Assembly (NCBI RefSeq): GCF_044324875.1
Contig: NZ_CP172185.1
Length of the DNA stretch: 64,000 nt
Direction: 5' to 3' (one strand)
DNA from: Escherichia coli
Lineage (GTDB): Bacteria; Pseudomonadota; Gammaproteobacteria; Enterobacterales; Enterobacteriaceae
Made by a program: the position numbers and the translations under genes. The first letter of the stretch is position 1. Each line of letters opens with the position of its first letter. The notes under the pieces were generated by a model. It did not search any database and was not told the DNA's origin. It was given only the letters and a program-made list of their open reading frames with translations. Below are positions 688 to 54,963 of this stretch, piece after piece.

Positions 688-725
688 AAAAGCAAATCAG
701 GCTGATGACAAAGCCATGCAAGCGC

Positions 726-776
726 ACGGACAGTCCCCTCGCCCCTTCGGGGAGAGGGTTAGGGTGAGGGGAAAAC
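726..776. repeat. GC-rich palindromic intergenic repeat (unit ~ cccctcgcccct..gggagagggttagggtgagggg), copy 1
   Basis: Near-identical units recur at 16271-16380 and 54770-54897 in both orientations; internal inverted symmetry (ccctcgcccc / ggggagaggg). Family name not asserted. Confidence 0.7.
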
Positions 777-1098
777 CGTGCCCATACTGACCCGTAAGCG
801 AGTTTGTCAGCAATCTCAAATGATGCCCAAATGGTAACTACAACTCATAACTCTTTGGTGTTACTTGAGGCGATTTTTTAACATTTCCATAAGTTACGCT
901 TATTTAAAGCGTCGTGAATTTAATGGCGTAAATTCCTGCTATTTATTCGTTTGCTGAAGCGATTTCGCAGCATTTGACGTCACCGCTTTTACGTGGCTTT
1001 ATAAAAGACGACGAAAAGCAAAGCCCGAGCATATTCGCGCCAATGCGACGTGAAGGATACAGGGCTATCAAACGATAAGATGGGGTGTCTGGGGTAAT

Positions 1099-5666: not shown

Positions 5667-5740
5667 ATGACCTTTGTATCGCGTCTGGCGCTATTTGCCG
5701 GATGCGATACTGCCGCAATGTTTACATCGAACTCCCCTCA

Positions 5741-16196: not shown

Positions 16197-16270
16197 CCTA
16201 CTCCAAACTCCCGGCTTGTCCGGGAGTTTGAGAGTGCAGGCAAAGTGGCTCACTCGTCACTGCGGGCATG

Positions 16271-16380
16271 TTTTTCCCCCTCGCCCTTTCAGGGAGAGGG
16301 TCGGGATGAGGGTAAATATTCGCCCCGGAGCTGGCCTGTTCCCCTCACCCTAACCCTCTCCCCAAAGGGGAGAGGGGACT
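16271..16380. repeat. GC-rich palindromic intergenic repeat, two inverted copies
   Basis: 16271-16315 (ttttccccctcgccctttcagggagagggtcgggatgagggtaaa) and 16340-16380 (cccctcaccctaaccctctccccaaaggggagagggg) in opposite orientations; same family as 726-776 and 54770-54897. Confidence 0.75.
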
Positions 16381-16526
16381 GTTCGAGCACTTTTTATACG
16401 TTATCACCCGTCTGAAACTCCCACGTTGTTCAGGAATTTTTTATCCGCTTCTGGACATTTTCTCTACAGAACAATCGTTAGCCCGGAAGGTCGAATCTGT
16501 GACTCTTATTTTCACGGACGAACCAG

Positions 16527-17144
16527 ATGAAAGCTTCACTGGTGCTGGTCAGCCTGCTAACGGCGTTTACCAGCCACTCCTTAAAATCTCCCGCCGTTCC
16601 ACCAACCGTGGTACAAATCCAGGCCAACACCAACCTTGCCATCGCAGACGGTGCCAGACAGCAAATCGGCAGCACGCTATTTTACGATCCGGCGTATGTG
16701 CAGCTTACCTATCCTGGCGGTGATGTCCCGCAAGAACGCGGCGTATGTTCCGATGTGGTGATCCGCGCCTTGCGCAGCCAGAAGGTCGATTTGCAGAAAC
16801 TGGTTCACGAAGATATGGCGAAGAATTTTGCTGAGTACCCGCAAAAATGGCAGTTAAAGCGCCCGGACAGCAACATCGATCACCGTCGGGTGCCTAATCT
16901 GGAAACCTGGTTTAGCCGCCACGATAAAACACGCCCCACCAGCAAGAACCCCGGTGATTATCAAGCGGGCGATATTGTCTCCTGGCGATTAGATAACGGG
17001 CTGGCGCATATTGGGGTGGTTTCAGATGGCTTCGCCCGCGACGGTACGCCGCTGGTGATACATAACATTGGCGCAGGCGCGCAGGAAGAAGACGTGCTGT
17101 TTAGCTGGCGGATGGTGGGGCACTATCGGTATTTTGTTAAATAA
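16527..17144 (+). CDS. yijF: Putative lipoprotein/exported protein YijF (DUF1287 family as I recall)
   Basis: 205-aa ORF with N-terminal signal-like segment MKASLVLVSLLTAFTSHSL...; position matches K-12 order. Confidence 0.85.
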   Translation: MKASLVLVSLLTAFTSHSLKSPAVPPTVVQIQANTNLAIADGARQQIGSTLFYDPAYVQLTYPGGDVPQERGVCSDVVIRALRSQKVDLQKLVHEDMAKNFAEYPQKWQLKRPDSNIDHRRVPNLETWFSRHDKTRPTSKNPGDYQAGDIVSWRLDNGLAHIGVVSDGFARDGTPLVIHNIGAGAQEEDVLFSWRMVGHYRYFVK

Positions 17145-42602: not shown

Positions 42603-42632
42603 TGCCGGATGAAGCGTTTATGCCGCATCCGG
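42603..42632. repeat. REP element between glpK and glpX
   Basis: gccggatgaagcgtttatgccgcatccggta: canonical REP-type palindrome (GCCGGATG…CATCCGGY). Confidence 0.75.
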
Positions 42633-49638: not shown

Positions 49639-49740
49639 GATGCCGGATGCGGCGCGAACGCCTTATCCGGCCTACAAAAGTTTGCAAATTCAATAAATTG
49701 CAGAATTCATGTAGGCCTGATAAGCGAAGCGCATCAGGCA
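49639..49740. repeat. BIME: two REP elements in inverted orientation
   Basis: gatgccggatgcggcgcgaacgccttatccggcctac (49639-49675) and gtaggcctgataagcgaagcgcatcaggca (49711-49740). Confidence 0.8.
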
Positions 49741-54708: not shown

Positions 54709-54769
54709 ACTCGGCGCAGAGCCGTCCCCTTCGGGGTGAAGGCAACAGGTCAGCACTGTGCGAACTGAT

Positions 54770-54897
54770 ACCCTCACCCCGGCCCTCTCCCTGAAAGGGC
54801 GAGGGGGAAAAACGTAGCCCTGTTCAGCAACGGAGCTGAGCACCGCTCCGGACAGTCCCCTCGCCCCTCTGGGGAGAGGGTTAGGGTGAGGGGAAAA
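54770..54897. repeat. GC-rich palindromic intergenic repeat, two copies
   Basis: 54770-54812 (ccctcaccccggccctctccctgaaagggcgagggggaaaaa) and 54853-54897 (cagtcccctcgcccctctggggagagggttagggtgaggggaaaaa, near-identical to 731-776). Confidence 0.75.
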
Positions 54898-54963
54898 ATT
54901 CAGCACAATGCAAACGGCACTGCTCTCACCGGAAACCATGCCAGATTTCGTATTAAGGCAGAC

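Follow-up and report, generated by a model that had tools for sequence, protein, structure and literature searches.

Introduction

REP sequences, for which stabilisation of the 3' end of mRNA is documented, are organised in BIMEs with subtypes of alternating orientation and distinct head-to-head and tail-to-tail linkers. The BoxC repeats resemble REP/BIME elements in being short GC-rich imperfect palindromes, located just past stop codons and polymorphic between strains, either solitary or arranged in inverted pairs, where characteristic head-head and tail-tail linkers join two subtypes. They differ in having no sequence similarity (a BoxC profile misses the REP copies), in possessing a third block, the second G-rich arm, which REP lacks, and in abundance, with approximately 20-30 copies per genome for BoxC compared to hundreds for REP. 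For BoxC, no partner comparable to RAYT, IHF, or gyrase is known. REPINs, said to be REP doublets mobilised by RAYT transposases, as Bertels and Rainey reportedly described in 2011, share with the BoxC doublets the inverted arrangement with a conserved spacer, the single long hairpin, the near-identity of copies, and the intergenic location. In contrast to them, the GTAG-type tetranucleotide conserved at the 5' end of REPs is missing from BoxC, its activity is putative, and a cognate transposase is neither known nor was found. The ERIC/IRU and other enterobacterial MITE-like repeats are likewise palindromes located between genes, present in some strains and absent in others, but ERIC measures approximately 127 bp and is unrelated in sequence.

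As Holder et al. 2015 (PMC4666352) relate, the motif had the original name BoxC (Bergler 1992), was found again as PIT (Hoyne, Maher 2000, 2002), and later became TMECO. The paper gives the TMECO consensus as CCCTCNCCC-N3-6-GGGNGAGGG-N3-GGGNGAGGG and observes that all five inverted pairs of K-12 combine a type A with a type B unit. Its survey found neither a strand bias nor an association with transposons, phages, or plasmids, and TMECO loci were unusually variable, with raised variability in the flanks. Kaplan et al. 2016 (PMC5100583) named the subtypes HPG1/HPG2 and proposed a G-quadruplex/hairpin/duplex switch. In an independent survey table, BoxC is listed with a size of 56 bp and 32 copies in E. 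coli. The family also features in the surveys of Bachellier. The function of BoxC has been unsettled for 30 years.

Identification of the Repeat Units

Five related units were present at three intergenic loci, argE-ppc, gldA-yijF, and cpxA-yiiM, of the window, which is the whole 64-kb stretch of E. coli DNA analysed here (Table 1). Judging from their sequence, they almost certainly belong to the BoxC family (= PIT = TMECO = HPG1/HPG2). An initial annotation had supposed that they correspond to a named intergenic repeat family of E. coli, without saying which, and the consensus together with the homology to K-12 designated BoxC. It had also located every unit within a few bases and missed no copy, as seen both by reading of the sequence and with the K-12 profile.

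Table 1. Junctions, variable segments, BoxC units, and linkers in the 64-kb window.
Feature	Position	Strand or gene orientation	nhmmer match	Details
argE-ppc junction	argE stop 685-687; ppc start 1099	co-directional		one unit from 727
gldA-yijF junction	gldA end 16196; yijF start 16527	co-directional		doublet 16270-16385
cpxA-yiiM junction	cpxA end 54708; yiiM (minus strand) end 54964	convergent		doublet 54761-54901
Variable segment argE-ppc	690..852 (163 nt)			one BoxC unit; K-12: 349 nt, five REP hits
Variable segment gldA-yijF	16232..16410 (179 nt)			doublet; K-12: 123 nt, two REPs
Variable segment cpxA-yiiM	54712..54963 (252 nt)			doublet; K-12: 102 nt, two REPs
Lone BoxC unit of type A with one mismatch in the stem ('A mm')	727..779	+	727-775(+)	core 736-771 = CCCTCGCCCCTTCGGGGAGAGGGTTAGGGTGAGGGG; 40 nt past argE stop, 320 nt short of ppc start
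BoxC unit, type B-like, TCG second loop	16270..16322	+	16270-16322(+)	core 16278-16313
Tail-to-tail linker, gldA-yijF doublet	16313..16341			TAAATATTCGCCCCGGAGCTGGCCTGTT; kept in four K-12 doublets at unrelated loci
BoxC unit, type A, perfect stem	16333..16385	-	16333-16385(-)	core 16342-16377(-) = CCCTCTCCCCTTTGGGGAGAGGGTTAGGGTGAGGGG
BoxC unit, type B, one stem mismatch, CCG second loop	54761..54814	-	54761-54814(-)	core 54770-54805(-) = CCCTCGCCCTTTCAGGGAGAGGGCCGGGGTGAGGGT
Head-to-head linker, cpxA-yiiM doublet	54806..54857			52 nt
BoxC unit, type A, one stem mismatch	54849..54901	+	54849-54901(+)	core 54858-54893 = CCCTCGCCCCTCTGGGGAGAGGGTTAGGGTGAGGGG

The profile was built from ten K-12 MG1655 units alone, placed by means of the coordinates in Table 1 of PMC4666352, and is independent of the window. 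Searched with nhmmer, it matched the five units with E-values from 7e-16 to 1.5e-14; no sixth significant copy was seen in the 64 kb, and the other matches were only weak reverse-strand echoes, as the palindrome predicts. A repeat finder grouped the BoxC units into the direct families D1/D2 and the inverted pairs I1-I5, and placed REP in a separate family, D3 (copies at 42603, 49641, and 63742). The copies align as a single family, occur in both orientations and partly as inverted pairs, and are distinct from REP/BIME, as had been annotated. The conserved span, 49-54 nt by repeat finder and profile, amounts to approximately 55 nt per unit, which is longer than the approximately 45 nt initially proposed. 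In the type A units, a weaker similarity ran for approximately 40 nt further, past the C-rich head.

The 21-mer GGAGAGGGTTAGGGTGAGGGG occurred exactly three times in the window against 0.00 expected in 100 shuffles, and the search with the TMECO consensus, which the initial annotation had suggested, returned four matches against 0.00 expected. The published consensus was exact in four of the five units; the core at 16278-16313 departs from the strict pattern by one G-to-A substitution, GGGATGAGGG for GGGGTGAGGG, at an orthologous site where strain 2012C-4221 has the canonical G. Two cores were identical over 36 nt to K-12 copies situated at other loci: 54770-54805(-) to TMECO no. 10, and 54858-54893 to nos. 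9, 16, 19, and 22 (PMC4666352 Table 1). The copies at 727 and 54849, in unrelated loci, were 96% identical. A chance resemblance of low-complexity GC-rich sequences, with no true family behind it, would fit the fold energies of single units, just modestly better than those of composition-matched shuffles. We rejected it as practically negligible, since neither pattern was expected once in shuffles, the profile E-values were at most 1.5e-14, and two units match K-12 copies over 36 nt.

The five units share with the published BoxC/PIT/TMECO/HPG1-2 repeats the pattern, the length of approximately 55 nt, the strictly intergenic site, the A/B subtypes including the 'mm' variant, the inverted pairing of A with B, and the variation among strains, and show no difference in kind. 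Relative to K-12 BoxC, the window differs by the unit in which the G-to-A substitution breaks the strict pattern, and by a first loop, CTTCG at 745-749, absent among the K-12 variants.

Other known repeats of E. coli were compared, as had also been advised. A REP identity was rejected, the consensus GCCGGATG...CGCCTTATCCGGCCTAC matching only at 49660, 49711, and 63761 and at none of the five units. ERIC/IRU was rejected as well: the ERIC2 primer sequence, taken as the core, had no match in the window at up to three mismatches, and the unit length was wrong. Rfam 15 gave nothing at gathering threshold at the loci, and the sub-threshold matches were only to generic eukaryotic miRNA-hairpin models, far under their cut-offs. 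The units should be labelled BoxC/TMECO, and not REP, terminator, or sRNA. The finding is genuine but ordinary: the family is already known, having been described at least four times since 1992, each time with another name, and these copies can be found in hundreds of public genomes, so that they carry little weight as a discovery.

All five units were intergenic, with annotated or called genes on either side, and lay 40-75 nt past a stop codon. Gene names were taken from the annotated E. coli records under the matches and from the alignment to K-12; both supported the initial gene assignments and the placement of the loci, two of which follow the 3' end of the first of two co-directional genes while the third separates convergent genes.

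Anatomy and Predicted Folding

Each unit is built of three blocks, one rich in C (CCCCTC[G/T]CCCC) and, after a short loop of variable sequence, two rich in G, GGGGAGAGGG and GGGTGAGGGG, the latter two separated by a spacer which is TTA in type A and CCG/TCG in type B. Three units belonged to type A (736, 16342, and 54858) and two to type B (54771 with CCG and 16278 with TCG), and both inverted pairs associated one unit of each type, in keeping with the published rule. The C-block is complementary to both G-blocks, and consequently either of two hairpins is open to one single strand. The common CCCCTCGCCCC head makes one G·A mismatch with the first G-block and one G·U(T) wobble with the second; accordingly, in the minimum-energy RNA structures predicted for the units at 727 and 54849, it is the distal block that pairs.

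The initial annotation had described an imperfect palindrome able to form a stable hairpin in each unit. Every unit was indeed predicted to fold as a hairpin, with energies of -17 to -31 kcal/mol, but the z-scores against dinucleotide shuffles, from -0.8 to -3.4, were modest, since a composition of G-runs and C-runs favours pairing by itself. The two inverted pairs were predicted to form long hairpins on either strand (-64 to -91 kcal/mol), and the gldA-yijF spacer at full length reached a fold z-score of -5.1. An inverted A+B doublet can adopt a hairpin or cruciform of 45-60 bp.

The sequence features required for a triplex or a G-quadruplex (G4), three mutually compatible blocks and four G-tracts, were present. 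In vitro, an intrastrand purine-motif triplex with a Tm of 70-82 C and a stalling of polymerase were reported (PMC4666352), as were a K+/Mg2+-dependent change of CD spectra and a G-quadruplex/hairpin switch (PMC5100583). The sequences for which these in vitro structures were published are identical to window units. Such structures might be functional, with triplexes or G-quadruplexes formed in transient single strands modulating replication, recombination, or transcription, an explanation which takes in both the idea of an adaptive instability and that of a G4-hairpin-duplex switch. The in vitro behaviour, the four G-tracts of the G-rich tail, the higher variability around TMECO loci, and the conservation of the three-block architecture across phyla are in line with it. 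Against it, DMS footprinting in vivo gave no sign of a triplex and the sequence was a duplex when the complement was present (PMC4666352), and the same paper reports that an effect on replication or conjugation in vivo was not found. With G4 enabled in ViennaRNA, the Watson-Crick hairpin won in every unit (-19 to -31 kcal/mol compared to -12.6 kcal/mol for the G-rich tail alone), and we rejected the G-quadruplex as the dominant fold. In addition, the gldA-yijF unit with a G-to-A inside a G-tract persists in hundreds of genomes. We consider a functional non-B DNA structure to be distinctly unlikely.

The doublets are composite elements. At gldA-yijF, the units 16270..16322 and 16333..16385 form a tail-to-tail (convergent) A+B doublet, which aligned in its entirety with the K-12 doublets at ygfF-gcvP, hrpB-mrcB, fepB-entC, and alx-sstT, including the linker TAAATATTCGC..CTGGCCTGTT and approximately 40 nt past the type A head; the identity to the ygfF-gcvP copy was 87.5% over 168 nt. 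At cpxA-yiiM, the units 54761..54814 and 54849..54901 form a head-to-head (divergent) A+B doublet with convergent genes on either side, and the linker showed a weak similarity to that of the lone K-12 head-to-head pair, at lldD-trmL. By its subtypes, alternating orientation, and linkers, the architecture of the BoxC doublets can be seen, by analogy, as a parallel of that of BIMEs.

Alternative BoxC and REP Alleles

No BoxC is present at these three loci in K-12 MG1655, Table 1 of PMC4666352 being empty between 4.07 and 4.31 Mb, which places the window copies at strain-variable loci. Alignment to K-12 showed that the whole variable segment was replaced at each of the three, with REP hits in all three K-12 segments and none in the corresponding window segments (Table 1). 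The segment at gldA-yijF starts directly after a conserved perfect hairpin at 16204-16231, downstream of the gldA stop, and that at cpxA-yiiM is essentially the entire spacer, from stop codon to stop codon.

Among 5,426 complete E. coli genomes, and counting alleles at 80% coverage or more of a tight query, the BoxC allele was observed in 284 genomes for argE-ppc, 630 for gldA-yijF, and 160 for cpxA-yiiM; the BoxC alleles of the window are rare within the species. With flank-only queries in samples of 60 genomes per locus, a K-12-sized REP allele was seen in the large majority and a BoxC allele in 2/60 and 8/60. At two loci these samples held BoxC or REP alleles only, and no empty site. No target-site duplication was seen at the compared alleles. 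Both absences are explained by the nature of the allelic difference, in which one entire spacer takes the place of another. Rarer forms existed: strain 536 possesses at cpxA-yiiM a longer allele with an additional REP, and in the BoxC allele of one strain a 25-nt deletion takes out the type A hairpin.

The comparison of the window to 36 kb of K-12 revealed four structural differences, all at intergenic repeats. The fourth site is eptC-yijO, where the window has a 12-nt REP remnant and K-12 a BIME. This agrees with the published variability of TMECO loci. The alternation of REP with BoxC is not mentioned in PMC4666352, to which this comparison was confined. The existence of REP/BIME and BoxC as alternative alleles, the BIME-like linkers of the doublets, and the complete three-block unit in genomes of many phylum labels, described below, could justify a follow-up at the scale of populations.

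Position Beyond Stop Codons and Possible Roles

From their location, the initial annotation had suggested a role of the units in mRNA stabilisation or termination. This was not supported, given the lack of a T-run, the mixed orientations, and negative published tests. In a terminator scan and by direct reading, none of the five units was followed by a T-run in either orientation, the bases after the units being TTAGGG..., AAAA or ACTGT. An intrinsic (Rho-independent) terminator was rejected, as no terminator-like call coincided with a unit hairpin, and a promoter scan of the three loci gave nothing coinciding with the units. According to PMC4666352, Hoyne & Maher 2002 detected neither promoter nor terminator activity, and RNA polymerase was unaffected.

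An element acting at the RNA level would place hairpins in the 3' UTRs of argE, gldA, cpxA, and yiiM, where, in the manner of REP elements, they would block 3'-to-5' exonucleases or aid termination. The spacing of all units from a stop codon, the strong RNA hairpins predicted, the REP/BIME at the same K-12 positions, and the lack of an empty allele in the 60-genome samples at two loci would all suit such a function. Its probability is reduced by the missing U-tract after every unit hairpin, the presence of both orientations, the published absence of strand bias and of terminator or promoter activity, the unremarkable fold z-scores of single units, and the conserved perfect hairpin with which gldA is already provided ahead of the variable segment; on the whole, a 3'-end element appears unlikely. 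The REP at the same K-12 positions keeps a weak form of the mRNA-stabilisation idea alive, and permissive landing sites explain the shared REP/BoxC positions equally well.

We propose instead that BoxC would be a non-coding, non-autonomous dispersed repeat without a required host function. It would persist, and occasionally spread or be exchanged by recombination, in the permissive DNA just beyond stop codons. Its hairpin or cruciform potential would promote deletions and allele turnover, and so make the spacers unstable. Considered by itself, the suggestion of repeats free of host function and prone to instability seems to us evenly balanced; blended with the BoxC identity, it forms the best overall explanation, which is somewhat more probable than its opposite. 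The selfish or neutral status of the units is inferred, as is the link to instability. The presence of REP at the same three spots could mean a selection for some hairpin element, an observation which fits poorly with the explanation that we favour.

Distribution in Other Genomes and Possible Mobility

A scan of species-representative genomes with the exact 22-mer GGGAGAGGGTTAGGGTGAGGGG found at least 120 stretches. Among the matches listed, the 22-mer was present in Alpha-, Beta-, and Gammaproteobacteria, Myxococcota, and Desulfobacterota, in MAGs labelled Chloroflexi, Elusimicrobia, Desulfotomaculum, and FCPU426, and in a single Methanomicrobiaceae archaeon, whose 2.7-kb contig may be a contamination. 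Pseudomonas sp. dw_612, among the Gammaproteobacteria, had more than 30 copies. Also among the matches listed, genomes of distant phyla contained the 22-mer many times over. Holder et al. (PMC4666352) counted 3,610 copies in 262 proteobacterial genomes and mention high triplex-motif counts in some cyanobacteria, so that the breadth of the family was largely known already. The non-proteobacterial labels may extend the known range, unless they are due to binning errors.

The query fixed the G-rich part alone. In the 218 copies of the matches listed, a complementary C-block was found 1-11 nt upstream in 199, and 36 of the 38 adjacent pairs were inverted. Exact stems across phyla combined with variable first loops resemble a structural or binding-partner constraint more than neutral decay, which speaks against the preferred explanation. 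In Pseudomonas sp. dw_612, the doublet was a head-to-head element of approximately 165 nt whose spacer is conserved and whose outer limits are sharp.

It is conceivable that the A+B doublet is an active REPIN- or MITE-like element which transposes, its units being bound by a putative dedicated enzyme. Doublets with conserved linkers at unrelated E. coli loci, the sharply bounded Pseudomonas elements, the predominance of inverted pairs and the many near-identical copies per genome in distant phyla (both among the matches listed), and the variable presence among strains point in this direction. Pointing away from it are the absence of any transposase found beside or between the units, the lack of observed target-site duplications and empty sites, the survey of PMC4666352, with no association to transposons, phages, or plasmids, and the fact that just 11 of the 36,080 matched places in E. 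coli were on plasmids. Active transposition of this kind seems to us quite improbable. In a wider version, the BoxC A+B doublets would be REPIN-like replicators, or binding modules of a putative conserved factor, present in many phyla and rivalling REP/BIME for landing sites directly after stop codons, a view that we hold to be similarly doubtful. If it were true, the alternation of REP or BoxC at the three junctions would represent functional equivalence or a turnover of rival selfish elements.

A mobilising enzyme is neither known nor was found, which counts against the preferred explanation of a non-autonomous repeat, as does the lack of observed target-site duplications and empty sites. 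With the E. coli RayT as sole tblastn query, no credible RAYT homologue was present in 1.84 Mb around the 218 listed loci; the best match, from this one query and small sample, had an E-value of 0.029 and overlapped a unit. ORFs lying between inverted units approximately 800 nt apart in Pseudomonas were rejected, since they consisted of more degenerate repeats in arrays. When naive ORFs from the 2.5 kb around each of the 218 listed units were clustered, no recurrent neighbour gene emerged beyond generic ABC ATPases and a shared head module. Other ORF clusters near the units were rejected as spurious high-GC ORFs or translations of the repeat itself. The shared neighbour module corresponded to a prophage or GTA-like head module. 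In IMG/VR, 98 stretches contained the 22-mer, and several of these corresponded to a syntenic spot, with a shared head-module cluster including an HK97-type protease-like ORF.

BoxC and REP/BIME Alleles at the Same Spacers

The three segments of the window bearing BoxC units (table below) were compared with the corresponding regions of K-12 MG1655 (stretches L001 and L002). At argE-ppc, gldA-yijF and cpxA-yiiM alike, the corresponding junction-to-junction segment of K-12 contained REP/BIME elements. Each of these spacers can thus be regarded as having a BoxC allele and a REP allele, of which BoxC is the rarer one, being carried at these spacers by 3–12% of the 5426 complete E. coli genomes.

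Features of the window and an example doublet from Pseudomonas sp. dw_612
Feature	Position	Strand	Remark
BoxC-bearing segment, argE-ppc	window 690-852		compared with K-12
BoxC-bearing segment, gldA-yijF	window 16232-16410		compared with K-12
BoxC-bearing segment, cpxA-yiiM	window 54712-54963		compared with K-12
Stem-loop, AAACTCCCGG CTTGT CCGGGAGTTT	window 16204-16231		perfect 11-bp stem, 8 nt past the gldA stop
eptC-yijO spacer	window 5667-5708		42 nt
L31 ribosomal-protein leader	window 29867-29919	minus	Rfam gathering-level
ClpQY promoter element	window 34531-34588		Rfam gathering-level
ES036 (CssrF) sRNA	window 49677-49718		Rfam gathering-level; within REP cluster 49641-49726
Example head-to-head doublet	L036:9424-9582		Pseudomonas sp. 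dw_612

The variable gldA-yijF segment began directly after a stem-loop that was kept in BoxC and REP alleles alike. The two halves flanking this stem-loop, an A-run and a T-run, make it a candidate terminator of gldA. It may be the gene's own terminator; a simple terminator scan of the locus did not call it. Within the variable segment itself, the doublet of E. coli 2012C-4221 (L228) showed a 25-nt deletion in which the type A unit had lost its C-block and its first G-block. Pairing between the part left behind, CCCCTCACCCTA, and the type B unit was still possible. The deletion resembles what Holder et al. (PMC4666352) termed the "palindrome effect".

Other Differences from K-12

Over the 36 kb compared, all the structural differences between the window and K-12 were located at intergenic repeat sites. 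The eptC-yijO spacer was short in the window as compared to K-12, where it holds a two-REP BIME of 108 nt; the only REP part kept was a remnant of 12 nt (GCCGGATGCGAT). Sequence identity to K-12 was approximately 97–99% in the aligned blocks other than the 3' part of argE (positions 1-689), for which it was 93.8–95.2%. Divergence is locally raised beside the BoxC locus, in the argE flank adjoining the variable segment.

Single spacers of the window matched some strains at 100%, unlike the 24-kb block from position 17000 to 41000, whose top full-length identity among the 5426 complete genomes was just 98.4%. The DNA may derive from a lineage outside the genome set (e.g., Shigella) or from a recombinant mosaic. 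Three Rfam matches at gathering level were present away from the BoxC loci.

Distribution of the Repeat outside E. coli

The exact 22-mer from the unit's G-rich portion was searched in genome contigs, giving at least 120 stretches (L009-L128). Among the matches listed, the 22-mer with its upstream C-block occurred in genomes labelled as many phyla (for example L098, L106-L107, L109 and L110), including MAGs called Chloroflexi, Elusimicrobia, Desulfotomaculum, FCPU426 and a Methanomicrobiaceae archaeon, labels for which MAG contamination is possible. In the viral collection IMG/VR, 98 stretches (L129-L226) contained the exact 22-mer. Groups of them (e.g., L148, L196 and L218) had in common a cluster of genes similar to a head module, in which one ORF resembled a prohead protease of the HK97 family; the position of the unit was syntenic. 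These stretches possibly represent prophages or GTA-like regions in high-GC Alphaproteobacteria.

More than 30 copies (L033-L062) were found in Pseudomonas sp. dw_612, the majority being head-to-head doublets of approximately 165 nt with a conserved spacer of approximately 90 nt. Some regions of this genome carried arrays of degenerate copies, in which naive ORF calling produced repeated peptides such as ...SPSPQRGEG...
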